Positions 27,251-58,859 of a DNA stretch of 64,000 nucleotides are shown in pieces. The position numbers and the translations under genes were made by a program. Positions within the stretch are counted from its first letter, which is position 1; the number at the start of each line of letters is the position of its first letter. This DNA is from Desulfobacterales bacterium (GTDB taxonomy: Bacteria; Desulfobacterota; Desulfobacteria; Desulfobacterales; SURF-7): positions 4,750 to 68,749 of the forward strand of contig JABHLN010000001.1 of NCBI GenBank assembly GCA_018693105.1. The letters are read 5' to 3'. The notes below the pieces were generated by a model. That model had not been told where the DNA came from and searched no databases. It saw only the letters and a program-made list of their open reading frames with translations.

Positions 27251-27330
27251 CCCCCCCCCTTATACCCGGACATACCGGTAAAGTTATAACAAGTTCTCTG
27301 TTTTTTTTTATTTTAACCACTAGCTGATGG

Positions 27331-30516: not shown

Positions 30517-30526
30517 ACATTCTTTT

Positions 30527-32436: not shown

Positions 32437-32457
32437 AATAAATATTTTTCACCCATT

Positions 32458-33054
32458 TTATTCACTCGATCCCCAGCTGTTTAAGAGGCTTTGTTTTCTA
32501 CCCAGAAGATTCAGCAACTTTCCAACAATAAAATCCACAACATCATCAATAGTTTCAGGATGTGTATAGAAACCCGGAACAGGAGGAACCATTTCAGCAC
32601 CTGCAACCATGGCCTTTCGCATATTCTCAACATGGATAAGATTCAAAGGGGTTTCTCTTGGAACGATAATACACCTTCTCTTTTCTTTAAAAGCTACGTC
32701 ACATGTACGAACAATAAGATTATCAGCATAACCGCTTGCAATAGCTGAAAGAGTCTTCATTGAACACGGTACTACGACAACTGCCTCAAATTCTGATGAA
32801 CCGCTGGCAGACGGTGAAAAAAAATCACTATTTTCATACTCCTTTAATAGTCCGATTTTTCTTGTTACACCCCTCTTTTCTAACAGGTCTTTCAGGGAAG
32901 TATAAGCGCTATTGTTTAAAACTTCGTGCTCTATAATCTTTCTGCCGGTCTTTGATACAATTGCAGCCACTTCTTCTTCAAGATTCAGAAGTTCCTCAAT
33001 AAGTCTTATGCCCATTATCGGCCCGCTGGCCCCTGAAATAGCGACAATTATCAT
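32458..33054 (-). CDS. ubiX: Flavin prenyltransferase UbiX family
   Basis: 198 aa. Motifs IIVAISGASGPIMGIRLIEEL and VVVPCSMKTLSAIASG. Confidence 0.85.
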   Translation of the reverse strand: MIIVAISGASGPIMGIRLIEELLNLEEEVAAIVSKTGRKIIEHEVLNNSAYTSLKDLLEKRGVTRKIGLLKEYENSDFFSPSASGSSEFEAVVVVPCSMKTLSAIASGYADNLIVRTCDVAFKEKRRCIIVPRETPLNLIHVENMRKAMVAGAEMVPPVPGFYTHPETIDDVVDFIVGKLLNLLGRKQSLLNSWGSSE

Positions 33055-33102
33055 TTTATTTCCCCCCCCGATAAGGAATGATTTATATTTATTTTCACGG
33101 TT

Positions 33103-33945: not shown

Positions 33946-35380
33946 ATTCTTTCCATCTTTTTTCCACAAGCGCTCTGATTTCTTCAGACATTTTTATCTC
34001 TTCGGGCCATTCACGCCCCATACCTTCTTCACGGGTTTTTCTGGTAGCATCTATCCCCATCTTTCCTCCGAAATTTGCATAAGAAGCAGAATGGTCAAGT
34101 GCGTCAAGAGGTCCCTGGGAAAATATAAGGTCCCTCCTAGGATCAACATTGTTTAGAAGCTTCCATACTACAGTGCTTGAATCTCTTAAATCGATATCAT
34201 CATCAAAAACCGCTATAAATTTGGTCGAAGACATCTGTCCTAGACCCCATAGTGCGTTTATTACTTTGTTGGCATGCCCGGAGAATTTTTTATCTATGGA
34301 TACAAGTGCACAATTGTGAAAAACACCTTCCATTGGAAGTTCCATGTCTATAATTTCAGGAAGGATGGTCTTTATAACAGGCATAAACAGCCGTTCCGTG
34401 GCCTTTGCCATGTAACAGTCTTCCATAGGAGGTTTGCCGACAATAGTAGCAGGATACACGGCATCTTTTCTGCAGGTAATACATGTTACATGAAATACCG
34501 GGTAATCATCTGCAGGAGAATAAAATCCGGTATGATCACCAAAAGGGCCTTCCACTTTAATTTCTTCGGGGTCAACATATCCTTCGATGATAAAATCAGA
34601 TTCGGCAGGAACCATTATATCAACGGTTTTTGCCTTAACAATTTCAACAGGTTTTGAATTGATAAAGCCTGCAAAAATATATTCATCAATATCCGGTGGA
34701 AGAGGTGCCGTAGCTGCATAGGTAACGGCAGGAGAACCCCCTAAAGCAACAACGACATCCATACGCTTACCAAGATTCTTATATTTATCAAAATGCCTTG
34801 TTCCGTCCTTATTATACTGCCAGTGCATGCCGGTAGTATTATTGTCATATTTATGCATCCTGTACATACCTGCATTCTGGATCCCCGAATCAGGATCTTT
34901 AGTTATTACAATAGGCAGTGTAACAAATGGTCCGCCATCATGGGGCCAGCATGTAAGTATAGGGAGCTTGTCAAGCATTGGACCGGAATCATCAAAAATG
35001 ACTTCCTGGCAGGGAGCATGCCTGACTTTTTTGGGAAGAATATCTGCCACCTGTTTTAGTGTAAAAAGCATTTTGATTTTTTCGGTTAATGTTTTAGGAG
35101 GCTGAATATTTATATTTGCCTCAAGTTTTTCTGAAATTTCTTCTAAGGAATTGCAGTTAAGCGCATATTCCATACGCCTGTAACTCCCGAACGCATTTAT
35201 AAGAAGCGGAAATGAATATCCTCTAACATTTTCAAACAAAAGCGCAGGGCCATTAGTTTTACTCATTCTATCCGCAATCTCGGTTATTTCCAGAACCGGA
35301 TCAACCTCAACAGAAACCCTTCGAAGCTCCCCTGCCTCTTCCAGAAACTTTATAAATTGTTGTAAATTATTGTAAATCAT
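33935..35380 (-). CDS. ubiD: UbiD-family decarboxylase (menaquinone-associated)
   Basis: The N-terminus MIYNNLQQFIKFLEEAGELRRV is typical of UbiD, so I prefer the start at 35380. The ORF track extends to 35449. Confidence 0.8.
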   Translation of the reverse strand: MIYNNLQQFIKFLEEAGELRRVSVEVDPVLEITEIADRMSKTNGPALLFENVRGYSFPLLINAFGSYRRMEYALNCNSLEEISEKLEANINIQPPKTLTEKIKMLFTLKQVADILPKKVRHAPCQEVIFDDSGPMLDKLPILTCWPHDGGPFVTLPIVITKDPDSGIQNAGMYRMHKYDNNTTGMHWQYNKDGTRHFDKYKNLGKRMDVVVALGGSPAVTYAATAPLPPDIDEYIFAGFINSKPVEIVKAKTVDIMVPAESDFIIEGYVDPEEIKVEGPFGDHTGFYSPADDYPVFHVTCITCRKDAVYPATIVGKPPMEDCYMAKATERLFMPVIKTILPEIIDMELPMEGVFHNCALVSIDKKFSGHANKVINALWGLGQMSSTKFIAVFDDDIDLRDSSTVVWKLLNNVDPRRDLIFSQGPLDALDHSASYANFGGKMGIDATRKTREEGMGREWPEEIKMSEEIRALVEKRWKEYGF

Positions 35381-35547
35381 AATCAAATTAACCTTTTTTG
35401 TTAAATAAATGATTATAAAAAAACCGGACTTCAGTGTCAAGGATGGCATTTTTATCTGTAATAAAATCCTGAATTAATAGCCTCATATTCATATCAATGA
35501 TCATATCCATTGTTTTTTTATCTAAATTTATGCAATATATAATTTGT

Positions 35548-39025: not shown

Positions 39026-39961
39026 ATGGTTTTAAAAACTATGAATTCAATGGATATTCAAACAGATAATCACCCGGATAATCATATTGACAGGTATATG
39101 AATTATCTGCTGGTTGAAAAAGGTTTGTCTGAAAAAACTATAGAATCATACAATAGCGATATAACAAGGTATATCGATTTTCTTGAAGATAACAAAATTA
39201 ATAAGCTTTCCGAAGCAGATACGACTGTGATTTTAAAGCATCTTATAGACCTCAGAAAATCAGGTCTCGGGGCAAGATCAAGGGCAAGACATCTTGTTAC
39301 ATTAAGAGGTTTTTACAAGTTTCTTGTCAATGAAAAAATTATCAGTCATGATCCGACAATTATTGTAGACCTACCAAAAAGCGGCCTTAAACTTCCTGAA
39401 GTTCTATCTGTAAGTGAAATTAACAGTTTTCTGAACACCCCCGATACAAATAAACCTTCAGGAATTCGGGACACTGCTATGCTCGAGCTTCTCTATGCTG
39501 CAGGACTGAGAGTTTCAGAACTTATTAATATTAAGCTTCAGAGTGTTAATACCGAAGCAGGATTTGTAAGGGTATACGGGAAAGGATCAAAGGAAAGAAT
39601 TATCCCCATTGGTCAGTATGCTAAAGAAAAAATTGATGAATATGTAGCTTCATCAAGGCAGATTCTCTTAAAAAATCATAAAAGCCAGTATCTTTTTGTG
39701 GCAAGAGCAGGTAAACCCATGACACGCCAGGGCTTCTGGAAGCTTGTAAAAAGATACGCCCTTATTTCAGGCACAAAAAAAAAGATTACACCTCATACTC
39801 TTCGACACTCCTTTGCAACCCACCTCCTTGAAGGAGGGGCAGACCTCAGAGCAGTCCAGATAATGCTTGGTCATGTTGATATTTCCACAACGCAGATATA
39901 TACTCATATAGCCCACGAGCATCTCCGGAAAATTCATGAACAATATCATCCAAGGGGATAA
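39026..39961 (+). CDS. xerD: Tyrosine site-specific recombinase XerD
   Basis: 311 aa. Catalytic region HTLRHSFATHLLEGGADLRAVQIMLGHVDISTTQIYTH and the XerD-like C-terminus HEQYHPRG. Confidence 0.75.
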   Translation: MVLKTMNSMDIQTDNHPDNHIDRYMNYLLVEKGLSEKTIESYNSDITRYIDFLEDNKINKLSEADTTVILKHLIDLRKSGLGARSRARHLVTLRGFYKFLVNEKIISHDPTIIVDLPKSGLKLPEVLSVSEINSFLNTPDTNKPSGIRDTAMLELLYAAGLRVSELINIKLQSVNTEAGFVRVYGKGSKERIIPIGQYAKEKIDEYVASSRQILLKNHKSQYLFVARAGKPMTRQGFWKLVKRYALISGTKKKITPHTLRHSFATHLLEGGADLRAVQIMLGHVDISTTQIYTHIAHEHLRKIHEQYHPRG

Positions 39962-40291: not shown

Positions 40292-41953
40292 ATGAGTTCA
40301 TCATATAAGGAAAAAAAAATAACGGGCTGGTGGACATCAAACGGAACACAGCCTGAAACCGGAAGCAACTCTATAAAAGAAGCTATTTCAAGGGTTACTC
40401 ACCCGGTTTATATGGTTGATATGGACGGACATATGGGAGTCGGACATGATGGTATTGTTGTTATGGGTAAAGACGCCCCCGATATGTCTGAAGGTTACCC
40501 CCTTACAGCCTGGTCTCCGCCTCTTCATCCTGAAAACCTTGGTGATCCTGTTTTCAAAAAAAGGCACAATATTCGTTATCCTTACATTGCCGGTGCAATG
40601 GCGAACGGAATTACATCTACAGATATAGTTGAGGAGATGGGTTGTGCAGGAATGGCCGGTTTTTTTGGTGCAGGAGGCCTTACACTTGATAAAATCGAGG
40701 CAGCAATCGACAGACTTGAAGAGCGTCTCAAAGATATTACCTATGGTTTCAACCTCATACATAGCCCCAATGATCCTGATCATGAGAATGCAGTTGTTCA
40801 ACTTTATTTGCGGAGGGGAGTCAGACTGGTAAGCGCCGCGGCATATATGAACCTTACTCTTCCAATCGTATATTACCGCGTAAAGGGAATTCACCGTGAT
40901 ACCGACGGAAATATCATTTGCCCGAATAAGATAATTGCAAAGGTATCAAGGGTTGAGGTTGCAAGAAAATTCTTTTCTCCACCACCGGAAAAATTTCTCG
41001 GGCAGCTTTATGAAAGAAAATTGATTACCGAAGAAGAGGCCGAACTTGCACGGCATATTCCCATGGCAGACGACCTTACAGCTGAGGCAGATTCAGGTGG
41101 CCACACCGATAACCGCCCTGCCCTTGCACTATTGCCAAATATTATCGCCCTGCGTGATGAAATGGTAAGACAGTTTGATTACAAAGACCCTGTTTGTGTG
41201 GGTCTTGGAGGTGGTATTGCCACGCCGGAATCAACAGCGGCTGCTTTTGCAATGGGCGCTGCATATGTTTTGACAGGTTCTGTTAACCAATCCTGTGTGG
41301 AATCAGGAACATCGGAATCTGTAAGACAGATGCTTGCAGATGCCGGACAGGCTGATGTGTCCATGGCACCTGCTGCAGACATGTTTGAAATGGGAGTAAA
41401 AGTTCAGGTTCTTAAACGGGGAACTCTTTTCCCGGTGAGGGCTGCAAAACTTTACGAAATTTATTCAAGGTATAATAGTCTTGAAGAAATCCCGGAGAAT
41501 GAAACAAAAAATATTGAAAAAAACTTTTTTAAGTGCGGCTTACAAGAGGAATGGCACCGAACGAAAAGTTTTTTCCAGCAACGTGATCCAAGACAGATAA
41601 AACTTGCAGAATCAAAGCCGAAGCACAAAATGGCCCTTATCTTCAGGTCGTATCTAGGCCGTTCTTCATTCTGGGCTATATCAGGTGATTCGGATAGAAA
41701 AATCGATTTTCAGATCTGGTGCGGGCCGGCCATAGGCGCCTTTAACGAATGGGTAAGAGGAACATTTCTTGAAAAGCCTGAAAACAGAAAAGTCGTCACT
41801 GTAGCGATGAATCTTCTTTATGGTGCATCCATAGTAACACGTATAAACTGGCTTCGAAATCAGGGTATTGTTCTTCCAACTGATGCAGGAAGTTTTTCAC
41901 CAATGGAACTATCAGAAATTCAAAAGAATCTCGAAAATAAGGTAGCTAATTGA
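40292..41953 (+). CDS. pfaD: PfaD-family trans-acting enoyl reductase (FMN, nitronate monooxygenase-like)
   Basis: 553 aa. The family-typical N-terminus is followed by a TIM-barrel ER region (YPYIAGAMANGITS, EADSGGHTD). 4-nt TTGA overlap with the downstream megasynthase gene. Confidence 0.8.
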   Translation: MSSSYKEKKITGWWTSNGTQPETGSNSIKEAISRVTHPVYMVDMDGHMGVGHDGIVVMGKDAPDMSEGYPLTAWSPPLHPENLGDPVFKKRHNIRYPYIAGAMANGITSTDIVEEMGCAGMAGFFGAGGLTLDKIEAAIDRLEERLKDITYGFNLIHSPNDPDHENAVVQLYLRRGVRLVSAAAYMNLTLPIVYYRVKGIHRDTDGNIICPNKIIAKVSRVEVARKFFSPPPEKFLGQLYERKLITEEEAELARHIPMADDLTAEADSGGHTDNRPALALLPNIIALRDEMVRQFDYKDPVCVGLGGGIATPESTAAAFAMGAAYVLTGSVNQSCVESGTSESVRQMLADAGQADVSMAPAADMFEMGVKVQVLKRGTLFPVRAAKLYEIYSRYNSLEEIPENETKNIEKNFFKCGLQEEWHRTKSFFQQRDPRQIKLAESKPKHKMALIFRSYLGRSSFWAISGDSDRKIDFQIWCGPAIGAFNEWVRGTFLEKPENRKVVTVAMNLLYGASIVTRINWLRNQGIVLPTDAGSFSPMELSEIQKNLENKVAN

Positions 41954-44900
41954 AACATGACAAGAAAAAAATAAAACCGGATATTCCGGTTGCGATAATT
42001 GGTATCGGCTGTCTTTTTCCAAAGGCAGCAGGAGTTAAAGAATACTGGCGGCTGCTCTACCACGGAGAAGATGCAATAACTGAGGTTCCGGAAACACACT
42101 GGTCCATAAAAGACTATTTCCATAGTGATCCGAAAACACCTGATCATACCTATTGCAAACGTGGTGGTTTTCTTTCACCGGTATCTTATGATCCATCCGA
42201 ATTCGGAATTCCTCCTAATCTGATGGAAGCCACTGACACATCACAGCTTCTCGGACTTATTGTCGCAAAAATGGCTCTTGAGGACGCAGGTTATAAAAAA
42301 GAAGGGGCTTTTGACCGTGAGAAAACAAGTGTGATTCTCGGAGTAACGGGCACACAGGAGCTTGTCATTCCTCTTGGAGCAAGGCTTGGTCATCCAATAT
42401 GGCGAAGAGCGCTTGAAGATTCAGGGGCAACTCCTGAAATGACAGAGGAGGTTATCAGCAGAATTTCCGAAGCCTATGTCCCATGGCAGGAAAACTCTTT
42501 TCCGGGCCTTCTCGGAAATGTTATCCCCGGAAGAATCAGTAATCGTTTTAATCTGGGTGGCACAAACACGGGGGTAGATGCAGCATGCGCAAGCTCCTTA
42601 AGTGCGATCAACCTTGCTGTACTTGAACTGATATCCGGCCGGAACGACATGGTAATAACCGGCGGTGTGGATACTCTTAACGACATATTTATGCACATGT
42701 GCTTCTCCAAGACATCTGTCCTTTCACATACGGGAGACGCAAAACCATTTTCACAAGATGCTGACGGAACAGTACTTGGAGAAGGCATTGGAATGGTTGT
42801 TTTAAAACGCCTTGAAGATGCTGTAAAAGACGATGACAGAATTTATGCAGTAATAAAATCAATAGGTACTTCAAGCGATGGTAAGTCGGGAAGTATTTAT
42901 GCGCCAAATTCAACTGGACAGAAAAAAGCCCTGCAGATGGCATATAGAAACGCTGATGTATCTCCAGCAACTATAGAACTTCTTGAGGCCCATGGTACAG
43001 GAACAAGGGTGGGAGATGCGGTTGAATTTCAGGCATTAAAAGAGGTTTATTCTGATGCAGGAAGCCGTCCCGGAAACTGCGCCCTTGGTTCAGTTAAGTC
43101 AAACATAGGTCACTGCAAAGCTTCAGCCGGAGTTGCCGGTCTTATTAAAGCCGCGCTTTCACTGCATCACAAGGTGCTTCCACCCACATTGAAGGTGGGA
43201 AATCCTGATCCAAAACTATCAATCGAAAAATCTCCTTTTTATCTTATAAAAAAATCACGGCCATGGTTTTCCTTATACGACCATCCACGCAGAAGCGGTA
43301 TCAGTGCCTTCGGGTTCGGAGGAAGTAATTTCCATACAATCCTGGAAGAATATGAGCCAAGCAAAAACAAAATCTCATGGAACGCAACTATTGAAATAGT
43401 TGCATTGTCAGCATCAACAAAAAACAAACTTAAGGAAAGATTAGCTTCCTTTTCAGAACAGATAGAAAAGATATCAGCAAAAGAAAATTTCTCATTCAGT
43501 GAAATTTCATTTCCGGCATCAAAAACCAGGGGAAGCTTCTCCAGCAATGACAAGTATCGTCTCCTGATGGTTTTGGAACGTTCAGATAAAAAATCTTCGC
43601 ATAGTGACTCTGACGACAATAAAAATTACGACTTTATAAATGTTTTCAAAAAATCTCTGCATGCATTAGAGTCGGACAACCCTGACGATTTGAAAAACAT
43701 TGAGAACGTTTTCTATGGTGAATCTGAAAAGCCTGGACAGGTCGCTTTTATCTTCCCGGGACAGGGCAGTCAGTATGTAGATATGGGAAAAGACCTTATC
43801 TGCACATTTCCTGAAGCACAAAGCGCCCTTGAAGATGCAAATCGCAATTTCTTATCAGAAAACAAAGGTACACTCGGTAATTTCATTTACCCTCATAATA
43901 CAAATGATAATACTCCCGGTAATACAAAAGGCAAAAAAAGACTTGAAGACGCGTTGAGGAGTACAGATATTGCACAACCTTCAATAGGAGCAATAAGTCT
44001 TTCAATGCTCAATGTTCTCCAAAGCTTCGGGATAAGACCTGATGCCGTATGCGGACACAGCTTCGGTGAACTCACAGCACTCTGCTGTGCAGGCCGAATA
44101 AATGTTGAAACATTTTATTCCCTGTCAACTTCAAGGGGAAGATTCATGGCTGCAACCGGAGGAGCTCAGGGCTCCATGCTTGCTGTAAAAGCACCGCTTG
44201 ATGAAATTGATAATATTATCGAGGAAAATAATATTGATGTCATCCTTGCAAATAGAAACAGTTATGAGCAGGGCATTCTTTCAGGTTCAAAAGATGCAGT
44301 TTCCGAAGCTGAAAAAATATGCAGGCAGAAAGGATTTAGAACCACCCCGCTTCCTGTTGCAGCAGCATTTCACAGCCGACTGGTTGAGGATGCCGCAAAG
44401 CCCTTTAAAAAATTCCTTAAAAGTATTGATATTATTTCATCGGATATTCCTGTACTTTCCAATACAACAGGGAAACCATATCCTGATGATCAGGATGAGA
44501 CAAAAAAGATTCTCGGAAACCAGTTTCTTAAACCGGTTGATTTTGTAAGTGAAATTGAAAACCTTTATGAAACCGGAGTGCACACTTTTGTCGAAATAGG
44601 TCCGAAAACTGTTCTAACAGGCCTTGTAAAATCAATATTAAAAGGGCGGGATTTTACCGCTGTAGCAATGGATGGTTCAGCAGGGCGGCGTTTTGGTATA
44701 TCTGATCTTGCAAAGGTTCTCTGCAATCTTGCATCTCTTGGTTATGGAGTAGAAATTGACAGATGGGAGGAAACACCACCGGAACCTGAAAAACAGAATA
44801 TGAGCATACCTATTTCAGGCGCAAACTACTGGCTGCCTCCTAAACCAAAGCCAAAGAAGGGACCTCAACCGGTTATTGAATCAAAACCGGAAACTGAAAA

Positions 44901-47900
44901 GACATATACACAGAAAATCCTAAAAAGTAATTATTCAAACAAACCAGTTATTGATAAAACCAGACTAATGAGTGATGAAACGAAAATAAAAGATGACTAT
45001 ATTTCAAACGCGTTAAATGTTGTTCAGGAAAGTATTAGATCCATGCAGGCGCTTCAGAAACAAACCGCAGAAGCCCATTCAAAATTTCTGGAGACCCAAA
45101 CAGAGGCCGCAAAGACTTTACAGGTTATGATGGGACAAACCCAACGCATGGCTGAAGCAACTATCGGTATAGGATCATCCGAAGTTACACAGAAAGACTC
45201 CAGGGAAACAACATTTGAAACACAGTATGATAATAGACCCGATGAAAATATTAATAACAGGGACCTTGATCCACAGCCGTATGTTGCTAATAAGCCGGCA
45301 TTACCTGACCGTTCAATTATTCCTGAAAGTAACGGGATAGATGCACATGATTCAGGACAGTCAACATCTATATCAGCTGACATTGAAAAGAACATGCTGG
45401 ACATAGTTGCACATCTGACAGGATATCCTGTGGAAATGCTCGGCATGGAAATGGATATTGAAGCAGACCTTGGGATTGATTCAATCAAACGTGTTGAAAT
45501 ACTTTCAACTCTTGAAGAAAAAATGCCGGATCTTCCTGCTGTTTCACCTGAAGCTATGGGCGAGCTTAAAACTCTGGGACAGATTGTGGATTATCTGTCA
45601 CAGGGAGCAGTAAACGATAAGAGCAGTGAAGGTAAGACAATTCGCTCCGATGGCCCGGGCAACACTGAGATAGAAACCAACCTGCTTGATATAGTAAGCA
45701 ACCTCACAGGCTACCCGGTAGAAATGCTCGATACAAACATGGATATTGAAGCCGATCTTGGGATCGATTCAATCAAACGTGTTGAAATACTTTCGACGCT
45801 GGAAGAGAAAATGCCGAATCTTCCTGCTGTTTCACCTGAAGCCATGGGTGAGCTTAAAACTCTAGGACAGATAATCGAATACTTATTAGCGGGGGCTGAG
45901 AAGGACACACTCACAACCGAAGAACATGCACATAAAAATATAACAGCTTCCGGTTCAAGTTCAGCCAAAATAGAAAAAGAGCTATTGGATATTGTTGCAC
46001 AGCTCACCGGCTACCCTGTTGAAATGTTAGGCTCGGATATGGATATCGAAGCTGACCTCGGTATCGATTCAATTAAACGTGTTGAAATACTTTCAACACT
46101 CGAGGAAAAAATGCCTGACCTTCCTGCTGTTTCACCTGAAGCCATGGGTGAACTCAAAACACTTGGGCAAATTGTGGATTATCTATCAGGTGGAGGTGAA
46201 GAAAAAACTAAACCTGCACCTCATGACCTTGATTCTTCTAAAATAGTTGAGACTGTTTCGCCGAATGTTGAAGAAAAGGACCGGGAACCAAAAACAACTC
46301 TGGAACGTCAAACAATATCGATTGTTGAAACACCTTTTTCTCAACGAGTAAAAATAAATATTCCTGAAAGTAAAACAATATATATAACAAAAGAAAGTTC
46401 CGGCCTTTCAGAAGCAATAGCTGCCGAGCTTGACTCGAGAAATATCAGTTCGGATATTATTACTTCAAAACAGATTAAAAAAATCCTTAAGGGTGATAAG
46501 GTTCTTAAAAACGTTGGGGGTCTTATCATAATTGCAGGCCAGGATAATGATGATGATATCTGGAATAAAAAAATACAGGCATTCTTAAAAAATTCTTTTG
46601 TTCTTGCAAAACATTGTGCGCCTGGTCTTATCAAATCCTCGGAATCGGAAAACGGCGGCGCTGTTTTTGCTACTATAACCCGCCTTGACGGGTGTTTCGG
46701 CTTCAAAGGTAAAGGCGTAAAAAATCCGCTGCAGGGAGGGCTTGCAGGTCTTTCCAAAACGGCCTCAATTGAATGGGAAAATGTGGCATGTCGTGCGGTT
46801 GATATTGATCCGTCATGGCGGGATAACAAAGAGATAGCAGATGCAATAGTCTCAGAACTTTTGAATGATACCACTACTATTGAGATCGGCCTTACTCCTG
46901 AGAGACGATATACACTTAAGCTCAAAAAGTCGGGAGCACCTGACGGAAAAACCGTTTTAATAGAAAACGATGTTGTTGTTATCACCGGAGGAGCTAGAGG
47001 CGTAACAGCAGCCTGTGCACAGGCCCTTGCAGAACAAATCAAACCTGTCATCGTGCTCCTTGGAAGGTCTCCGGAACCTAAACCAGAGCCTGAATGGTTA
47101 AAAGGCCTTACTATTGAGTCACATATTAAAAAAGGAATTCTTGAAAACGAATTTAAAGACAAGAAAACAACGCCAAAAAAAATAGAGAAATCATATCAAA
47201 GGCATTATGCAAACCGTGAAATTTCTAAAACTCTTGAAGAACTAAAAGAAAAAGGGGTAGAAGCATTTTACTATTCTGCAGATGTTCGTGATCAGGAAGT
47301 AATGAACAAAACATTTGATAAAATAAGGGAAAAACACGGGCCTGTAAAAGCATTAATTCATGGTGCAGGAATTCTTGAGGATAAATTCATAACGGACAAA
47401 TCTCTGAAGCAATTTGAAAGGGTTTATGACACTAAAACAAAAGGATTGCGGGTTCTTCTTGAAGCAACAAAGGATGACAGTCTTAAATATATTGTTTTGT
47501 TTTCATCAGTAAGCGCAAGGCAGGGTAATAAAGGTCAGGTAGACTATGCTATGGCAAACGAAGTATTAAATAAGGTTGCACATTATAAGTCTGTTTTATT
47601 GCCTGAATGTAAAATAATTTCGATCAACTGGGGGCCATGGGATGGTGGTATGGTATCTCCATTATTAAAAAATGAATTCAGGCGAAACAATATTGAGCTG
47701 ATCCCTGTTGATACAGGTGCAAGATACATGGTTAATGAAATGAAAAACAGCAGGGAAAACCCTGTGGAAATTATCATCGGTGCAACAATGCATCCTGATA
47801 ATAAAGACGAAAACATTGAACCTGTCATAAAAAAGATAAAACGATCATTACCTGAAAGCAAAAAAATGGCACTTTCATTTAATAGGGATGTTAATATTGA

Positions 47901-48714
47901 CACCTTCCCTATTCTTGAGTCCCATATATTGAACGGTGAACCAGTAGTACCTTTTGCGCTTATGGCAGAATGGTTCGGACATGGTGCCCTACATGGTAAT
48001 CCGGGTTTACGCCTACATGGAATAGATGATATGCGCCTGCTTAAAGGCATCCGGCTAAACGGCCAAAGCAGGCACATTCAGATTCTAGCCGGGAAAACCA
48101 GAAAAAACGGTTTATTTTTTGAGGTGGATGTGGAACTGAGAAACGGTGATGGTGCTGCCATGATTCATTCCAAAGCAAAAGCGATACTCACAGAAAAACT
48201 TTCTTCACCCCCTGAATTTAGTCACGCTAATAACATGTCATTAAAAGATTATCCAAGAAGCATGGATGAAGCATATGAAAAAATTCTTTTCCACGGTTCG
48301 CAGCTAAAGGGCATCAAAGAAGTTATAGGTTATTCCTCCAAAGGCATGACAGCCAGATTATCTTCGGCGCCAGATCCTGAAAAATGGATAACTGATCCTT
48401 TAAGAAGCGGTTGGATAGGTGACCCGCTTGTTCTTGACTCTGCTTATCAATTGGCAATCCTTTACTGCTTTGAGGAAACAGGTGTGGTCTCTCTACCTAG
48501 TTACAGTGCAAGCTACAGGCAATACAGTCAGTCATTTCCTCCAGACGGTGTTACAGCAGTGCTTGAAGTGACGGAGCTGACCGATCATAAAATGACAGGG
48601 GATTTCACATTCCTTGATTCAGACAATACGGTTGTAGCAACCATATCTGGTTATGAAGCGGTAATGGACATATCCCTGAACAATGCGTTCAAGCCTGAAG
48701 GGATAAAGGTATAG
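41950..48714 (+). CDS. pfaA: PfaA-like iterative type I synthase: KS-AT-ACPx3-KR-DH
   Basis: 2254 aa. KS: DAACASS, EAHGTGT, NIGH. AT: GQGSQ, GHSFGE, AAFHS. Three ACPs with LGIDSIKRVEILS. KR: TGGARGVT and a YAMAN region. PKS-type DH: H-x3-G-x4-P (HILNGEPVVP). TTG start. Confidence 0.9.
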   Translation: MKHDKKKIKPDIPVAIIGIGCLFPKAAGVKEYWRLLYHGEDAITEVPETHWSIKDYFHSDPKTPDHTYCKRGGFLSPVSYDPSEFGIPPNLMEATDTSQLLGLIVAKMALEDAGYKKEGAFDREKTSVILGVTGTQELVIPLGARLGHPIWRRALEDSGATPEMTEEVISRISEAYVPWQENSFPGLLGNVIPGRISNRFNLGGTNTGVDAACASSLSAINLAVLELISGRNDMVITGGVDTLNDIFMHMCFSKTSVLSHTGDAKPFSQDADGTVLGEGIGMVVLKRLEDAVKDDDRIYAVIKSIGTSSDGKSGSIYAPNSTGQKKALQMAYRNADVSPATIELLEAHGTGTRVGDAVEFQALKEVYSDAGSRPGNCALGSVKSNIGHCKASAGVAGLIKAALSLHHKVLPPTLKVGNPDPKLSIEKSPFYLIKKSRPWFSLYDHPRRSGISAFGFGGSNFHTILEEYEPSKNKISWNATIEIVALSASTKNKLKERLASFSEQIEKISAKENFSFSEISFPASKTRGSFSSNDKYRLLMVLERSDKKSSHSDSDDNKNYDFINVFKKSLHALESDNPDDLKNIENVFYGESEKPGQVAFIFPGQGSQYVDMGKDLICTFPEAQSALEDANRNFLSENKGTLGNFIYPHNTNDNTPGNTKGKKRLEDALRSTDIAQPSIGAISLSMLNVLQSFGIRPDAVCGHSFGELTALCCAGRINVETFYSLSTSRGRFMAATGGAQGSMLAVKAPLDEIDNIIEENNIDVILANRNSYEQGILSGSKDAVSEAEKICRQKGFRTTPLPVAAAFHSRLVEDAAKPFKKFLKSIDIISSDIPVLSNTTGKPYPDDQDETKKILGNQFLKPVDFVSEIENLYETGVHTFVEIGPKTVLTGLVKSILKGRDFTAVAMDGSAGRRFGISDLAKVLCNLASLGYGVEIDRWEETPPEPEKQNMSIPISGANYWLPPKPKPKKGPQPVIESKPETEKTYTQKILKSNYSNKPVIDKTRLMSDETKIKDDYISNALNVVQESIRSMQALQKQTAEAHSKFLETQTEAAKTLQVMMGQTQRMAEATIGIGSSEVTQKDSRETTFETQYDNRPDENINNRDLDPQPYVANKPALPDRSIIPESNGIDAHDSGQSTSISADIEKNMLDIVAHLTGYPVEMLGMEMDIEADLGIDSIKRVEILSTLEEKMPDLPAVSPEAMGELKTLGQIVDYLSQGAVNDKSSEGKTIRSDGPGNTEIETNLLDIVSNLTGYPVEMLDTNMDIEADLGIDSIKRVEILSTLEEKMPNLPAVSPEAMGELKTLGQIIEYLLAGAEKDTLTTEEHAHKNITASGSSSAKIEKELLDIVAQLTGYPVEMLGSDMDIEADLGIDSIKRVEILSTLEEKMPDLPAVSPEAMGELKTLGQIVDYLSGGGEEKTKPAPHDLDSSKIVETVSPNVEEKDREPKTTLERQTISIVETPFSQRVKINIPESKTIYITKESSGLSEAIAAELDSRNISSDIITSKQIKKILKGDKVLKNVGGLIIIAGQDNDDDIWNKKIQAFLKNSFVLAKHCAPGLIKSSESENGGAVFATITRLDGCFGFKGKGVKNPLQGGLAGLSKTASIEWENVACRAVDIDPSWRDNKEIADAIVSELLNDTTTIEIGLTPERRYTLKLKKSGAPDGKTVLIENDVVVITGGARGVTAACAQALAEQIKPVIVLLGRSPEPKPEPEWLKGLTIESHIKKGILENEFKDKKTTPKKIEKSYQRHYANREISKTLEELKEKGVEAFYYSADVRDQEVMNKTFDKIREKHGPVKALIHGAGILEDKFITDKSLKQFERVYDTKTKGLRVLLEATKDDSLKYIVLFSSVSARQGNKGQVDYAMANEVLNKVAHYKSVLLPECKIISINWGPWDGGMVSPLLKNEFRRNNIELIPVDTGARYMVNEMKNSRENPVEIIIGATMHPDNKDENIEPVIKKIKRSLPESKKMALSFNRDVNIDTFPILESHILNGEPVVPFALMAEWFGHGALHGNPGLRLHGIDDMRLLKGIRLNGQSRHIQILAGKTRKNGLFFEVDVELRNGDGAAMIHSKAKAILTEKLSSPPEFSHANNMSLKDYPRSMDEAYEKILFHGSQLKGIKEVIGYSSKGMTARLSSAPDPEKWITDPLRSGWIGDPLVLDSAYQLAILYCFEETGVVSLPSYSASYRQYSQSFPPDGVTAVLEVTELTDHKMTGDFTFLDSDNTVVATISGYEAVMDISLNNAFKPEGIKV
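45380..46195 (+). repeat. Three tandem ACP-coding repeats (period about 290-300 bp) inside pfaA
   Basis: Units at about 45380-45606, 45667-45895 and 45969-46195. Protein units are nearly identical. DNA differs mainly at synonymous sites, with identical stretches such as CTTCCTGCTGTTTCACCTGAAGC. Confidence 0.9.
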
Positions 48715-53835: not shown

Positions 53836-54064
53836 AGTTTTTCATATTCTCAGAAGGATAGTAATAAGGAGATTGATTAGGGGTCTGTTTTACTTTAACG
53901 AAGCGAAACAGATGTATTTGGGTCCAATTTCAGCGAGATTATCAAAAAGCCAATAAAATCTTGTTTTATTTAAAAAACGACTGAGTCGTAAGTCCATGAA
54001 TACAGGACTAAAGTTTCAGATGACCTACCTTTAGGCAATAATTCCAATGCAGAACCACAGGAAA

Positions 54065-55186
54065 TTAAATAATCTCATCCATGAGTGATTCCATAAATGC
54101 CTCAACCTTTATCTGAAGACGTGGGATATTTCCCACCTCTTCGGCTTCTATGCTCATCATCTTGATTCCTTTTTCCTTAGCCTTTATTTCAACTGCAGGA
54201 TATGAAAACATGTATGGGTCACAATATTTTTCAACTAACCATATCATTCCATCTGCATCGGATTCTTCAGCCATGCCGGTTAAACTGTCAACTATCTTTG
54301 CCATAGGGAACTTACCCGGGAAAGGGATTTTTTCAAGGTAATGAGTTGCAAGTGATCCCAGAGGATCGGGACCTGACTCAACTGTGTCCCAGCAGTATCT
54401 CATGCCATAACTGAAATTATCCATCACCACATGTCCGCCGCACTTTTCAATCACTTCAATTACAGTATCAGCCTCTTCAATGGCGTTACTTACAACACAT
54501 ATATATACATCGCCCTGATCATTATCAATATCCGGATTTTCATGGTAATTTGAAATTATATTCTCAAGCATCCGGTTGTGCTCATCTTTCGGAAGAACCA
54601 GGCCCGCCTTTATTATATCAATTATATCACTTCCTGATATTGATGAATCAGAAAAACTTCTTAACTCATAAAGCTTTTTCATCAGGTTACGATTTTCGTT
54701 ATACACTTCTATTGAATGAATAAGACGGTCATCGGTTATTTCATTTCCGGACATCTCCTCAAGGAAACTTTTAAAAATTTTGAGTTCTGATATAAAAAAA
54801 TCCCTTGATGTTTTTTTTGAGGTTGCAGGAACCTGCAGGAAGTGTGATTGGGGCATGCCTGAATTAAGTTTCCAGACTCCGTAAAACCCTCTGGATGCCT
54901 CACATGCATGAGCCAACACAGAGCCGTCGAGATAGTCAAGTTTTCCGGTCATGGCCTGTTCGAGACAATCTTTAAGATGAGTACATATAAAATCGGGAAG
55001 ACAGGTTTTTGTCTCTGTCAGGGGCAGATTAGTAGTAAACAACTGGACTGGAAGTATTCCTGCAGCATATATCATTTCTTCAGGAGTCAATGCGCTAAAG
55101 TAACCTAAAACCTTATTCCCACTCTTTTTCCACTCGGCAGCAACATTATCCCTGTTGTTAAAAACTTTTTTAAATTCAGAAAACAT
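54065..55186 (-). CDS. HGD-D family subunit (2-hydroxyacyl-CoA dehydratase / benzoyl-CoA reductase B/C-like)
   Basis: 373 aa. The N-terminal region KKSGNKVLGYFSALTPEEMIYAAGILPV is typical of the family. 3-nt gap from its paralogous partner. Confidence 0.75.
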   Translation of the reverse strand: MFSEFKKVFNNRDNVAAEWKKSGNKVLGYFSALTPEEMIYAAGILPVQLFTTNLPLTETKTCLPDFICTHLKDCLEQAMTGKLDYLDGSVLAHACEASRGFYGVWKLNSGMPQSHFLQVPATSKKTSRDFFISELKIFKSFLEEMSGNEITDDRLIHSIEVYNENRNLMKKLYELRSFSDSSISGSDIIDIIKAGLVLPKDEHNRMLENIISNYHENPDIDNDQGDVYICVVSNAIEEADTVIEVIEKCGGHVVMDNFSYGMRYCWDTVESGPDPLGSLATHYLEKIPFPGKFPMAKIVDSLTGMAEESDADGMIWLVEKYCDPYMFSYPAVEIKAKEKGIKMMSIEAEEVGNIPRLQIKVEAFMESLMDEII

Positions 55187-55189
55187 TAT

Positions 55190-56401
55190 CTATCTCCCTC
55201 CGGCACTTTGACTTTTCAACACTTCATGAAACATATCAACCATAGACCTGAACTTATTTGGGTCATGGCTCCCAGGATCAGCCATACTGCCTTCAACTAT
55301 CATATTGGGAATTCCGATTTTTTCCTTCAAGCTCTTTGCAACATCAAGCTGACCTGTTGAATAACCTCTGCAACCCTTATTTTCAAAAACCACAATTCCG
55401 TCTACCCTGTATTCTTTTACAGCCTCTTCAACGATTTCGATTTTTCTGTCAAGCCGCCTGTTTGTCCATCCTGTAAGATATTTTTTTGCAAGTCCTCTAA
55501 ATGGATCGCTTTTATCAAGACCTTTTGCAAAATATTCTTTTAGAAGTGTCTCGTAGACGAATACCATCCCTTTGCTTTCAAAATAATCAAAAAGATCCAT
55601 ATCATGATATATTGGCAGGTTATCCCATATCAGGCGATATTCTTCATGTTCTGCAACTCCAATGTTGTTCTCTTTCTTTTCAAGTGTCTCCTCATAAAAA
55701 GCTTTGTAAAAATCCAAAGTCTCCTGCTCTCCGGTAACATTTACAAGGCCAAACATGTCGGCGAACAATTGTCGGAACCCTACAGGACTCGGAGAGTTTT
55801 TCCTCAGCTCAATTACCTTGTGAAAATATTCGCAGGCATCCGAAGAAAGTTCAACGACTTTTTCAAACCTATCCTCATCAAAATCTTTTCCCGTTTCTTT
55901 CTCAAGAAACGATATAAGTTCCTTAGTCTGTGAAATATAAAAATCAATATGGCGCTCTTCATAATCAGCACATAAAACAGGCCCGTCAATTATAAAAAGC
56001 GGTACTTTATAATGCTGATGCATAAGTTCCCACCATGGGACATGAGCCCCGCATGTATATGCACTTGATATAAGGAGATCAGGTGCAATCATACCTCCTT
56101 GCGGGCCTTTATCAGAATACATGGAACCAAGAGCACATGTGGAAAATGCACACAGGTCCCTTGACACACCTGCCTTTTCTGCTTCAAATACCAATTCGTC
56201 TCCCATATCAGTGTTGCATGCACGGGTAGCATACCCTTCGGGGTAAAAAGGGAAAATGTCCATGGCAACAAGAACCTCAAATGGAAGAAACCCTGTAACA
56301 TGTGCAGTTAGTTTCTTTTTTGAAGCAGCATCTGAATAATTCTGATAATATTTTGCAAGAAGTTTTTCTTTGGCCTTTATATAGTTTTCATGTGCTGTCA
56401 T
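55190..56401 (-). CDS. HGD-D family subunit (2-hydroxyacyl-CoA dehydratase / benzoyl-CoA reductase B/C-like)
   Basis: 403 aa with family-typical segments (VTGFLPFEVLVAMDIFPFYPE, DLCAFSTCALG). Confidence 0.75.
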   Translation of the reverse strand: MTAHENYIKAKEKLLAKYYQNYSDAASKKKLTAHVTGFLPFEVLVAMDIFPFYPEGYATRACNTDMGDELVFEAEKAGVSRDLCAFSTCALGSMYSDKGPQGGMIAPDLLISSAYTCGAHVPWWELMHQHYKVPLFIIDGPVLCADYEERHIDFYISQTKELISFLEKETGKDFDEDRFEKVVELSSDACEYFHKVIELRKNSPSPVGFRQLFADMFGLVNVTGEQETLDFYKAFYEETLEKKENNIGVAEHEEYRLIWDNLPIYHDMDLFDYFESKGMVFVYETLLKEYFAKGLDKSDPFRGLAKKYLTGWTNRRLDRKIEIVEEAVKEYRVDGIVVFENKGCRGYSTGQLDVAKSLKEKIGIPNMIVEGSMADPGSHDPNKFRSMVDMFHEVLKSQSAGGR

Positions 56402-56421
56402 AAACTATTACCTTTCATTTT

Positions 56422-56712
56422 TTACCATGAGTGCGAAATGGCTTTTACATTACAGATTTCTATACATGGAAGAGACACCTGGTCGCCTGAAGACTTACAT
56501 GAATCGCATTCATACTTCAGCTTATTCTTTTTATCATCTGCAACAACAGCAACAGGAATATCCCTTAACGGATCATTAGGGTCCTCATCTTCAATTACAA
56601 ACACCTGTACAGGACATGCCTCTACACAATCCCCGCAGCCGTCACATTGATCAGTATCAATGGTTATAAAATAATCTCCCGTAGCATCTTTGTATCCATA
56701 ATTTGCAAGCAT
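56422..56712 (-). CDS. 2x[4Fe-4S]-type ferredoxin
   Basis: 96 aa with CDGCGDCVEACP (C-x2-C-x2-C-x3-CP) and a second cluster CDSC-x10-C-x3-C. Confidence 0.75.
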   Translation of the reverse strand: MLANYGYKDATGDYFITIDTDQCDGCGDCVEACPVQVFVIEDEDPNDPLRDIPVAVVADDKKNKLKYECDSCKSSGDQVSLPCIEICNVKAISHSW

Positions 56713-56757
56713 AAATTATCCTTATTCTTTATTAAGGGAATTACCTTTCATGCCCCT

Positions 56758-57654
56758 TTAGCGCCTTCTTCTCTTTTTTCTTTTTTTATTTTTACAAAGG
56801 GAATGACCAAAAATTGCCGCACCAATAGCCCCTGCTATCTGAGTATCCCATTGGGTAGTAATTCGTTCAATCCCTGCAAGTTTCATTACCCTATCCATTA
56901 CACCGCTATTTTTTGACATACCACCGGTAACTGCGAACTCTTTTTCCATACCGATTCTCTTTACGAGAGAATAAATCCGTTCTGCCATAGCCCTGCAATA
57001 TGCTGCAAGCACCTGTTCGGTACTCCATCCTTTTCTTAAAAGTCCGGTGGCTTCAGTTTTTGCATAAATCACACAAACGCTTGAAACGGGTGCAGGTTCA
57101 TCACCTTCAAATGCAAACGATCGATCCCCAACCTCATCGATCGGCACACCAAGAAGATCAGCCAGTATCTCCATGCCACGACCAGTACCTGCTGCACATT
57201 TATCATTCATCATGAAAGTAATGACCTTACCGTTTTCATCACAATGTATGGCCTTTATATCCTGACCGCCCACATCAAGAACAGTGCGCACTTTATCGCC
57301 ATAGATATAGTTGGCACCTCGTGCATGACATGCAATTTCCGTGAGTGTGCGATCGGCAAAAGGCACATTAATCCTCCCGTATCCTGTACCAACAGTATAA
57401 TTTACCCTTTCTCTGTCAATACCCGCAGCTTCTATAGCATAATTCAAAGCGTTTACCGCACTGGTGGGGCTGTCAGAACCGGTTCTCATACTTCCATAGG
57501 CATAAACCTCTCCGTCAGCAGCAATAACAGCCTGGGAGCTTACCGATCCCACATCAATTCCAACTGTAAATAATTCTACATCACCCGGATTAATATCAGG
57601 GTTTCTCCAGTTGGACTCCGTCCATCTCCAGTATTCCTGTTTGTTTTTTTCCAT
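56758..57654 (-). CDS. BcrAD/BadFG-family ATPase subunit (activase / reductase alpha-delta type)
   Basis: 298 aa with an acetate/sugar-kinase fold start (VGIDVGSVSSQAV) and cluster-binding context (NDKCAAGTGRGME, SSVCVIYAKTE). Unusual polybasic C-terminus KNKKRKKRRRR. Confidence 0.75.
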   Translation of the reverse strand: MEKNKQEYWRWTESNWRNPDINPGDVELFTVGIDVGSVSSQAVIAADGEVYAYGSMRTGSDSPTSAVNALNYAIEAAGIDRERVNYTVGTGYGRINVPFADRTLTEIACHARGANYIYGDKVRTVLDVGGQDIKAIHCDENGKVITFMMNDKCAAGTGRGMEILADLLGVPIDEVGDRSFAFEGDEPAPVSSVCVIYAKTEATGLLRKGWSTEQVLAAYCRAMAERIYSLVKRIGMEKEFAVTGGMSKNSGVMDRVMKLAGIERITTQWDTQIAGAIGAAIFGHSLCKNKKRKKRRRR

Positions 57655-57704
57655 TTTGCAAATCGGTTATTTGTGCATAGTTCCAGGTTCGTTAAAAAAA
57701 ATAG

Positions 57705-58490
57705 TTAGTGTCCATCCAGTCCCGCCACTAAAGCAGCCCCTACAGCAGCACCGTATTCAGGCATTTCCGGAATTAAGATTTTATCAAGATGAAGTTCACG
57801 TTTAAGGGAATCCAGAAAACCGGGGTTATAACTCACACCTCCAATCATTGATACATCCTCTTCTATTCCAATTCGTCTAATCATTGAGGCTATACGGTTT
57901 GCCATTGAATCGTGAATCGCCTTGCAGATATCATTTTTTTCAGTTTTTGCATGAATCAATCCAACAACTTCTGATTCAGCAAAAACAACACATTGGGAAT
58001 TCATTGGAATTGATTTATTAGATTTTAATGATAATTTCCCCATATCTTCAAGACTGATCTCAAGAGCCCTCGCCATAGCTTCGATAAACGAACCTGCACC
58101 TGCAGCGCATTTCCCGTTAACAGCAAAGTCAACAGGATTTCCGTTCTTGTCAACCTTGGCCACCCTTCCTTCTTCAGCGCCTACATCAATTACCGTTCTG
58201 GCATTCGGGAAGAAAAAAGCAGCAGCCTTTGACATAGCCTTTATATCATTGACATGGATATCGGCGTTTATAATAGAATCTTTACCTGATCCCGTCCCTC
58301 CAATCCTGTCAATTTGATCTTCTATTATTTGAAAATCCCTTAGAGCCTTTTCAAGGGATTCCTGAACTGCCTTTACCTGATCAAATCCGGTCAGCACTAA
58401 CCCTCTGCCTGCTATAACTCCGTCTTTTATCAAGACAGCCCGGGTGCTTTTAGCACCACAGTCTATTCCCGCTGTAATCATTTCCCCCAA
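57705..58490 (-). CDS. BcrAD/BadFG-family ATPase subunit (activase / reductase alpha-delta type)
   Basis: 261 aa. Motifs AGIDCGAKSTRAVL, NGKCAAGAGSFIE, NSQCVVFAESEVV. Confidence 0.75.
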   Translation of the reverse strand: MGEMITAGIDCGAKSTRAVLIKDGVIAGRGLVLTGFDQVKAVQESLEKALRDFQIIEDQIDRIGGTGSGKDSIINADIHVNDIKAMSKAAAFFFPNARTVIDVGAEEGRVAKVDKNGNPVDFAVNGKCAAGAGSFIEAMARALEISLEDMGKLSLKSNKSIPMNSQCVVFAESEVVGLIHAKTEKNDICKAIHDSMANRIASMIRRIGIEEDVSMIGGVSYNPGFLDSLKRELHLDKILIPEMPEYGAAVGAALVAGLDGH

Positions 58491-58859
58491 CCTCAGTATT
58501 TAATTGATTTTTTTTCAGTATCTACTATGAGGTAATAGGTGTCAAGATAACACATGACAAAAATTTACGAAAAACAGACATGGGTTGTATGTATCTATCT
58601 GAAAATTAGTGTGATGCAATAGACGGAGACTTTTTAATACATCTTCAAAAGCTCTGAAGCTTGTATTAAAAATTTAATCATGATATTTTCGATTCCGGCA
58701 AATATCAATATATACCATGATGCGTCAATACCGCTACCTTATGGTTCTATGAAAATCAAGTACCCAGGAGACGCTCAAATTCAAGTTAGATTTACTTGAT
58801 CTGGTTGAACGCAAGGAAAAAATAAAAAGTCCACTCTTTTAAAATTATAAAGGTTACTC

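Follow-up and report, generated by a model that had tools for sequence, protein, structure and literature searches.

A Bzd-type activating cassette joined to a rare HGD-D heterodimer in a Desulfobacterales bacterium: a candidate ATP-dependent acyl-CoA reductase

Organisation of the operon

Class I benzoyl-coenzyme A (CoA) reductases (BCR) and their cousins, the 2-hydroxyacyl-CoA dehydratases (HAD), are among the few enzymes that push electrons past the normal biological redox window, and the substrates known for them are few. Here we describe an operon with genes of this BCR/HAD radical-enzyme family in a 64,000-nt stretch of DNA from a Desulfobacterales bacterium (assembly GCA_018693105.1, contig JABHLN010000001.1, positions 4,750-68,749), hereafter the window, whose positions serve as coordinates for its features. 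Five minus-strand genes, all in the same direction, run from 58481/58490 to 54065, and open reading frames (ORFs) were present for all of them. In order, they encode a BzdP-like ATPase, a BzdQ-type ATPase, a ferredoxin, a 403-aa HGD-D protein and a 373-aa HGD-D protein, with spacings of 50, 45, 20 and 3 nt. ATPase subunit 1 (57705..58490, minus strand), of the BcrAD/BadFG type, matches PF01869 (E 4e-45) and the acyl-CoA dehydratase activase model TIGR00241 (219 bits). ATPase subunit 2 (298 aa; 56758..57654, minus strand) matches PF01869 (E 3e-51) and the BzdQ model TIGR03192 (396.3 bits). The 2x[4Fe-4S] ferredoxin (96 aa; 56422..56712, minus strand) matches Fer4 families and has eight Cys. The alpha/O-like subunit of 403 aa (55190..56401, minus strand; PF06050, E 6e-65) and the beta/N-like subunit of 373 aa (54065..55186, minus strand; PF06050, E 5e-71) lie side by side, and the HGD-D matches span the full length of both. 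These Pfam E-values exclude chance for the domain assignments. An earlier annotation of this DNA (the original prediction) had named two BcrAD/BadFG ATPases, a 2x[4Fe-4S] ferredoxin and two HGD-D proteins in five co-directional genes, all of which the coordinates and E-values confirm.

The first gene had been given a TTG start at 58490, yielding 261 aa. An ATG at 58481 (258 aa, MITAGIDCG...) is most likely the correct start, since GAGG lies 9 nt upstream and homologues begin MITAGID. A ribosome-binding site was recognisable for every gene of the operon except the second ATPase. The divergent intergenic region (58491..58859) holds a promoter-like site, the sigma-70-like TTGACA-17-GATACT at 58545-58517 on the minus strand, which is a consensus match only. 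A weak terminator-like hairpin with a 5-bp stem and a T-run (53977..53989, minus strand) lies 3' of the last gene, inside a 229-nt gap ahead of a methyltransferase gene, and a much stronger terminator is found 3' of the thiolase gene further downstream (51733-51709). Together, the gap, the weak hairpin and the strong terminator suggest that the five genes form a separate transcription unit. An Rfam scan found no riboswitch or other RNA element near the operon. At 4.4 kb the operon is compact, which makes heterologous expression practical.

The activating cassette

The two ATPases are only 30% identical and are thus old paralogues; the idea, raised in the original prediction, that the second might be a recent duplicate does not hold. 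Each contains the Cys pair of a bridging [4Fe-4S] cluster (C128/C167 in subunit 1, C153/C194 in subunit 2), with K-C-A-A-G motifs. The ferredoxin Cys, at positions 23/26/29/33/69/72/83/87, form the patterns CxxCxxCxxxCP and CxxCx10CxxxC. The BzdQ score of ATPase 2 exceeds the equivalog cutoff of 380.2 bits. ATPase 1 shares 64-69% identity with its 257-aa counterpart in Desulfobacterota Bzd sets, ATPase 2 72-73% with their Q subunit, and the ferredoxin 67-71% with the 96-aa ferredoxin that follows BzdQ in two Desulfobacterota loci (L028 and L031). Against the L031 trio alone, the identities are 69/73/71% for ATPase, Q and ferredoxin. In L030, L031 and L032 the trio lies downstream of a 383-aa and 436-441-aa HGD-D pair with 48-50% identity to the crystallised Aromatoleum BzdN and BzdO. 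The class I BCR architecture that the original prediction had proposed is thus borne out by the BzdQ match and by the likeness to a trio standing beside genuine BzdN/BzdO, and the electron-activating half of the operon can be assigned to the ordinary Bzd type.

The closest characterised counterpart of this half is the class I benzoyl-CoA reductase of Aromatoleum sp. CIB (BzdNOPQ with ferredoxin BzdM; PDB 8S02; PMC11971306), which likewise has two different BcrAD ATPases and a ferredoxin. However, the window order is P-Q-Fd-O-N rather than N-O-P-Q-M, and the window has neither the 840-aa NAD(P)H Fe-S flavoprotein nor nearby benzoyl-CoA pathway genes.

Approximately 8000 homologues of ATPase 2 were found. 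The best 120 listed are all at least 70% identical, and the organism-named entries among them are metagenome-assembled genomes (MAGs) of Desulfobacterota/Deltaproteobacteria, annotated 'bzd-type subunit Q'. Desulfobacteraceae/Desulfobacterales MAG records also hold one identical partial protein and one identical BzdQ-type protein. Among Desulfatiglandales MAGs, moreover, published metagenomic work reports BzdQ in over three quarters (PMC10570749). With BzdQ-type ATPases this common in Desulfobacterota and Desulfatiglandales MAGs, it is not unusual for a strict anaerobe to have a class-I-type activating module, contrary to the view that such an enzyme would be atypical for an obligate anaerobe. 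In a Q-subunit tree the Desulfobacterota copies form one tight group (68-75% identity) whether they are linked to Bzd genes, linked to the window's catalytic family or orphans. The suggestion that the window trio had recombined in from a Bzd locus was dropped, and no direction of exchange can be claimed, because the tree fails to separate these three types of linkage.

The trio is found in several other settings. On other Desulfobacterota contigs, those with Bzd sets included, an NAD(P)H-type Fe-S flavoprotein of 840-850 aa comes after the 257-aa ATPase, the Q subunit of ~296 aa and the 96-aa ferredoxin. Two such BzdP-BzdQ-ferredoxin loci (L027 7108-11639, L028 7157-11883) lack a complete HGD-D catalytic pair in the 8 kb to each side, L027 containing only a 106-aa HGD-D fragment. 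BzdQ-type genes are widely used metagenome markers of anaerobic aromatic degradation. These orphan activating cassettes therefore make BzdQ a poor stand-alone marker of benzoyl-CoA reduction, and a BzdQ match alone over-calls this activity because BzdQ-type genes occur with unrelated catalytic partners or with none nearby. Complete Bzd-type sets (N383-O436-P257-Q295-Fd96-oxidoreductase; L031 3426-10908, L030 2694-11323) are surrounded by sugar-phosphate genes (glucokinase, glucose-6-phosphate dehydrogenase, ribose-5-P isomerase) or by 2-oxoacid:ferredoxin oxidoreductase genes, and benzoyl-CoA lower-pathway genes were not found in their 7-kb flanks.

In six loci of Actinomycetota/Thermoleophilia (L008, L009, L011, L014, L016, L021) the P-Q-ferredoxin trio recurs at 47-62% identity, and a distant HGD-D pair (24-30% identity) lies ~8 kb downstream of it. 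The genes between trio and pair resemble a LytTR regulator, an enoyl-CoA hydratase, a PanE-like reductase and an AMP-forming ligase, as judged from ORF sizes and first residues only. Different phyla thus combine the P-Q-Fd cassette with different catalytic partners. The ferredoxin belongs to this widespread cassette rather than to the catalytic pair; the original prediction had given the module its own ferredoxin, which is correct as to its place in the operon and not as to its affiliation.

Class membership and rarity of the catalytic pair

The 403-aa and 373-aa proteins are ~13-35% identical locally and are thus distinct alpha-like and beta-like subunits. Neither reaches the cutoff of any NCBIfam equivalog for a characterised subfamily. 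Among these models, the 403-aa subunit scores best against HadB (171.5 bits, cutoff 750), followed by BzdO (TIGR03191; 131.6, cutoff 448.6), BcrB (129, cutoff 487) and the double-cubane cluster protein (DCCP) model NF040772 (86.5, cutoff 350). The 373-aa subunit scores 182.9 bits against BzdN (TIGR03190; cutoff 453.8), 168.6 against HadC (cutoff 700), 168 against BcrC (cutoff 421) and 161.4 against DCCP (cutoff 350). For the operon as a whole, BcrA (135/578 bits) and BcrD (117/313 bits) were also missed, so that none of the BcrA/B/C/D equivalogs (TIGR02259-02263) is reached. Moreover, DCCP is a homodimer with an [8Fe-9S] cluster in each subunit, whereas the window pair consists of two different subunits, neither with six ligands.

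Identities to proteins of known structure are low, the 403-aa subunit being 27% identical to HadB, 26% to BzdO and 24% to MbdO. Against the BzdO and BzdN of Desulfobacterota, values are 24-25% for the 403-aa and 29% for the 373-aa subunit. The original prediction had assumed that the catalytic pair, too, was Bzd-like. This does not stand: unlike the cassette, the pair is 24-29% identical to BzdN/O, falls far short of the BzdN and BzdO cutoffs and, as described below, has lost half of the double-cubane ligands.

A word-indexed search of 5.8 billion proteins returned ~14 relatives of the 403-aa subunit at 55-68% identity, the next being at most 36% identical. Exhaustive HMMER searching of 1.84 billion cluster representatives found a single one above 50% identity (P0011, 54%), with the next at 38%; the catalytic pair is thus covered by a single 50%-identity cluster of this set. 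Scanning one genome per species (185,579 species) with two family peptide patterns gave three family loci, all in Desulfobacterota-type MAGs, and no NaphS2, N47 or D. cetonica locus. A neighbour-joining tree built from the 150 best representatives and the references placed the family inside a 17-leaf uncharacterised clade, with HadB, BzdO and MbdO outside. The references were proteins with solved structures, a set that leaves out HgdAB, FldBC and LcdAB; within it, neither HGD-D subunit clusters in a characterised dehydratase clade, in line with the original prediction.

On its scores and its place in the tree, the catalytic pair is assigned outside the Bzd, Bcr/Mbd, Had and DCCP subfamilies, to a rare, uncharacterised clade. 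The operon thus appears to be built from two parts of different pedigree, a Bzd-type activating cassette and a rare catalytic heterodimer. This coupling of a rare catalytic clade to an already known, widespread activating cassette is newly identified here. The clade is a concrete candidate for new ATP-driven low-potential chemistry and, by sequence, clearly no benzoyl-CoA reductase.

Cluster ligands and active site

In BzdO the [4Fe-4S] ligands are Cys95/128/380, and Glu65 and His131 hold the Fe-bound water that is the hydrogen-atom donor; in BzdN the [8Fe-9S] double cubane is ligated by Cys36/73/100/263/293/327 (PMC11971306). C84/C117/C344 of the 403-aa subunit, which do not vary in alignments A1 and A2, align with the three BzdO Cys and with the HadB ligands. 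The counterparts of BzdO E65 and H131 are E55 and H120, and all five residues are invariant in an 11-member family alignment. The 403-aa subunit is accordingly predicted to carry the substrate-facing [4Fe-4S] cluster. At the position of H120, HadB has Val, MbdO Phe and DCCP Lys, and Ile/Val/Thr occur in the 30%-identity clades of Campylobacterota, Hippea, Nitrospinota and Actinomycetota, whose context is hydroxyacid-like. His120 may thus point to a BzdO-like site, although it is suggestive rather than diagnostic.

The 373-aa subunit keeps three of the six double-cubane Cys, C68/C95/C322 being equivalent to BzdN C73/C100/C327. Ser31 and Ser259 stand at the positions of C36 and C263, and that of C293 is occupied by Pro290 in a pairwise alignment or by Phe289 in the family alignment A3, with no Cys either way. 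The 373-aa subunit is therefore unlike BzdN in lacking half of the [8Fe-9S] Cys, and is predicted to be an electron relay with a single [4Fe-4S]-type cluster. The same three-Cys pattern is found in MbdN, a true reductase subunit, and in HadC, a dehydratase subunit; it consequently excludes Bzd-type membership and leaves the chemistry undecided. Within alignment A3 the loss is graded. No member has an equivalent of C36, several (P0153-P0160) have Cys at 263 and/or 293, and the window branch has neither. Such stepwise loss of the distal double-cubane Cys fits the proposed path from a DCCP-like ancestor to BCR/HAD enzymes (PMC11971306). Most members of the 373-aa family also have a family-specific Cys in an R-Y-C-W motif, two residues past a conserved Arg.

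The BzdO-like Cys3/Glu/His set, together with the Bzd-type activating cassette, would be expected of a genuine dearomatising aryl-CoA reductase, acting on benzoyl-CoA or on a close analogue (for example methyl-, hydroxy- or halobenzoyl-CoA or tetrahydronaphthoyl-CoA) and feeding an aromatic pathway whose genes lie in another part of the genome. Also in its favour, the BzdO ring-contact positions are occupied by aromatic or hydrophobic residues (F38 for W46, F86 for Y97, Y347 for L383). Against it, the catalytic pair is just 24-29% identical to BzdN/O and MbdN/O and misses the BzdN, BzdO, BcrB and BcrC models by at least 2.5-fold. The O-like subunit is ~40 residues shorter than BzdO. A comparison can also be made with the 3-methylbenzoyl-CoA reductase MbdONQP and the Thauera-type BcrCBAD (PDB 9G87, 9GAI). 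The heterotetramer logic, the two different ATPases and a gamma/N-type subunit with only three cluster Cys are shared, but identities are 22-25%, and MbdO, itself ~40 residues longer than the window protein, has Phe where the latter and BzdO have His. Furthermore, no recognisable benzoyl-CoA pathway genes occur in the 64 kb: dienoyl-CoA hydratase, hydroxyacyl-CoA dehydrogenase and ring hydrolase genes (dch/had/oah), a ligase, BamB and other Bam genes were all missing. The original prediction had already reported the absence of the first three near the operon, and this extends across the window. An aryl-CoA reductase of this kind is, in our view, unlikely.

Gene neighbourhoods of relatives

Eight loci of the catalytic family had usable flanks, and co-location was scored with a distance limit of 10 kb for the ATPase genes. 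Both ATPase genes lie within this distance of the catalytic pair in five of the eight (L001, L004, L005, L023, L034), and two of these (L005, L034) include the ferredoxin as well. The nearest outgroup (L033, 38% identity) has the same ATPase-ATPase-alpha-beta order. No ATPase was seen in the available flanks of L002 and L003, and L006 has a single one. The co-conservation of the gene set on which the original prediction leaned is thus upheld in these five loci and the outgroup, and is not seen in the other three.

The genes around the family differ from locus to locus. L001, L002, L005 and L034 share neighbours encoding a beta-keto acid cleavage enzyme (BKACE), electron-transferring flavoprotein (ETF)/FixCX proteins, Fe-S flavoenzymes of the old yellow enzyme (OYE) type, a biotin carboxylase set and SnoaL-like proteins. 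An AMP-forming ligase with beta-oxidation genes adjoins L003, an enoyl-CoA hydratase adjoins L024, and the neighbours of L004 and L023 are unrelated genes. Overall, the acyl-CoA genes near relatives comprise AMP-ligase, enoyl-CoA hydratase, acyl-CoA dehydrogenase, BKACE, OYE and ETF/FixCX genes, and the common theme of the family loci is acyl-CoA metabolism with low-potential electron supply. The BKACE gene (Kce-like, the L001 copy scoring 310 bits) lies immediately upstream of the alpha subunit in L001 (9010-9858), L002 (9077-9925) and L034 (7792-8709). A copy in L005 (~9010-9858) is probable from synteny only, an overlapping ORF on the opposite strand having been picked there. L002 and L005 also have biotin-carboxylase and oxaloacetate-decarboxylase-like carboxyltransferase genes close by. 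This arrangement hints that the enzyme is fed by an acyl-CoA made from a ketone via a beta-keto acid. A CrtI/amine-oxidase flavoprotein adjoins the module in L004 and L023 and was considered as a conserved partner; the two copies are non-orthologous (27% identity over 90 residues), the window has none, and the candidate was rejected.

The OYE-type Fe-S flavoenzyme and ferredoxin genes beside L001, L002, L005 and L034 speak for an aryl-CoA reductase, as tetrahydronaphthoyl-CoA reductase genes of N47 and NaphS2 are described as having such neighbours (PMC12016498). Like the window operon, these represent a class-I-type enzyme in obligately anaerobic Desulfobacterota. This likeness is drawn from the description of the N47/NaphS2 genes, which are presented as bzdNOPQ homologues, whereas the window catalytic pair is not Bzd-like. 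The window itself has neither an OYE gene nor a naphthalene-pathway gene. Moreover, the family neighbourhoods are mutually different and contain no recognisable benzoyl-CoA lower-pathway set.

A candidate acyl-CoA reductase

We give about even odds to a reading in which the operon codes for an acyl-CoA reductase that belongs to the BCR/HAD radical-enzyme family, depends on ATP, is fed by the ferredoxin and has a substrate other than benzoyl-CoA. This reading is favoured because the domains and the gene spacing fit, ATPase 2 passes the BzdQ model, the trio is closely related to that of Bzd sets, the bridging Cys are in place, the 403-aa subunit has a BzdO-like Cys3/Glu/His set, both ATPases are co-located with the catalytic pair in most relatives, and acyl-CoA genes are among the neighbours. 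The thiolase and TesB genes downstream of the window operon were counted as acyl-CoA context here. Reduced ferredoxin would load the [4Fe-4S] cluster that bridges the ATPase heterodimer. ATP binding and hydrolysis would then lower its potential and push an electron into the single cluster of the 373-aa subunit, from which it would pass to the three-Cys [4Fe-4S] cluster of the 403-aa subunit, with an open iron between Glu55 and His120 as in BzdO. At this site an acyl-CoA would be reduced through H-atom/electron transfer. Most likely, this substrate is not benzoyl-CoA but another CoA thioester, such as a substituted aryl-CoA, an alicyclic CoA ester or a conjugated enoyl-CoA, in agreement with the original prediction, which had left the substrate open. 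As a whole, that prediction was confirmed in its observation and partly supported in its interpretation.

Several results weigh against a reductase, and four of them (the HadB-like size and fold, the HadC-like cluster site, the lone activator of L006 and the Actinomycetota loci) make dehydratase chemistry a serious rival. In this alternative the enzyme would be a radical dehydratase of the 2-hydroxyacyl-CoA type, or another redox-neutral ketyl-radical enzyme, that uses the heterodimeric BzdPQ-type activator and the ferredoxin to supply a catalytic, recycled electron. The 403-aa subunit is HadB-sized, and HadB is its best NCBIfam match. Its AlphaFold (AF2) model (predicted local distance difference test score 90.9) superposes best on HadB in a Foldseek search, with a template-modelling (TM) score of 0.91, against 0.88 for BzdO and 0.88 for MbdO. 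Fold comparison was dropped as a discriminator of reductases from dehydratases, all three lying within 0.88-0.91. Profile scores against PDB proteins were dropped as well, since with the family profile of the 403-aa subunit HadB and BzdO tie (159.4 and 158.7 bits). The 373-aa subunit has HadC's three-Cys pattern including the C-x5-C spacing, though the true reductase subunit MbdN has three Cys too. The family member in L006 has just one activator-like ATPase gene after it, whose product shares 37-39% identity with each of the window ATPases. His at the H120 position is also found in ~20% of the nearest 150 representative clusters, whose function is unknown. In the Actinomycetota loci a distant HGD-D pair accompanies the P-Q-Fd trio, and the context, as read from ORF sizes and first residues only, looks dehydratase- and hydroxyacid-like. 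Finally, ETF and flavoenzymes accompany dehydratase operons too, such as the had operon of C. difficile, and the activator-alpha-beta gene order of the window is that of had operons.

A closer comparison can be made with the (R)-2-hydroxyisocaproyl-CoA dehydratase HadBC and its activator HadI from Clostridioides difficile (PDB 3O3M, 4EHT). Fold, subunit sizes, gene order, a beta subunit with only three cluster Cys and a conserved Glu after a Y-P motif are common to both systems. However, identity is 27%, and the HadB and HadC models are missed ~4-fold. The window has two paralogous ATPases where HadI is one homodimeric activator, and its ferredoxin gene is inside the operon; this is the arrangement of a stoichiometric reductase. 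His120, replaced by Val in HadB, is invariant in the family and absent from the 30%-identity clades. Moreover, neither the window nor the family loci contain a 2-hydroxyacid dehydrogenase or CoA-transferase gene. Taken together, we regard a dehydratase as somewhat improbable.

Returning to the acyl-CoA reductase, a more specific version can be put forward, tentatively. Several unrelated HGD-D dimers may draw on the BzdP-BzdQ-ferredoxin trio of Desulfobacterota as a common, interchangeable cassette, which here would work with a new kind of ATP-dependent reductase. The acyl-CoA that this reductase acts on would be non-aromatic or unusual, for instance an alicyclic, conjugated enoyl or ketone-derived thioester, and its relay subunit would be an evolutionary intermediate that has lost the outer half of the double cubane.

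Surroundings of the operon

Downstream of the operon are genes for an S-adenosylmethionine methyltransferase, a thiolase, TesB, a flavodoxin, a lipocalin-like protein and an ADP-ribosylglycohydrolase. On the upstream side, a TPR protein, a PlsC-type acyltransferase and a short-chain dehydrogenase/reductase are encoded divergently. Genes for PfaD (553 aa) and a single 2254-aa synthase with ketosynthase, acyltransferase, three acyl carrier protein (ACP), ketoreductase and dehydratase domains (40292-48714, plus strand) converge on the operon. The methyltransferase, thiolase, TesB, flavodoxin and convergent PfaD/PfaA-like genes had all been listed by the original prediction and were found as described, but the functional context they implied was not supported: no relative has methyltransferase, thiolase, TesB, flavodoxin, lipocalin or Pfa genes in its neighbourhood.

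A role together with the PfaD/PfaA-like synthase, the thiolase, TesB, the methyltransferase and the PlsC-type acyltransferase, on a fatty-acyl or polyene intermediate, is very unlikely. Proximity is what speaks for it, along with the fact that thiolases and thioesterases act on acyl-CoAs. However, none of these genes stands beside another family member, the Pfa genes are 5 kb away on the opposite strand, and the gap with its hairpin separates the operon from the methyltransferase gene, with the strong terminator lying after the thiolase. Pfa intermediates are, moreover, bound to ACP and not to CoA. A functional link to the methyltransferase and thiolase was also rejected after a metagenome scan with the methyltransferase, in which 43 loci were recovered (best identity 41%) and none contained HGD-D or BcrAD genes. 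A literature search on a Pfa link to the module turned up nothing. No PfaB- or PfaC-type genes occur in the window, and the Pfa set looks like a reduced 'secondary lipid' synthase set. A XerC-type recombinase gene (39026-39961) lies ahead of it.

The rest of the window includes a type II secretion cluster, an aldehyde:ferredoxin oxidoreductase and an M24 peptidase. A futalosine-pathway menaquinone cluster (25122-35449, minus strand) comprises two VitK2_biosynth genes, two CofH/MqnC-type radical SAM genes, UbiE, a nucleoside phosphorylase-like gene and homologues of UbiX, UbiA and UbiD. The UbiD of the window serves quinone synthesis, not aromatic carboxylation. An aromatic or naphthalene context, considered on account of two 659-aa ORFs and the UbiD gene, was rejected when these proved to be a secretin, a U32 peptidase and the menaquinone genes. 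A cobalamin riboswitch (1498-1713, minus strand; RF00174, 84 bits) precedes a MotA/ExbB-family gene (654-1286) and a small ORF further downstream. With a FecCD/ABC transporter pair (2400-4309) next to it, this looks like a B12 uptake locus.

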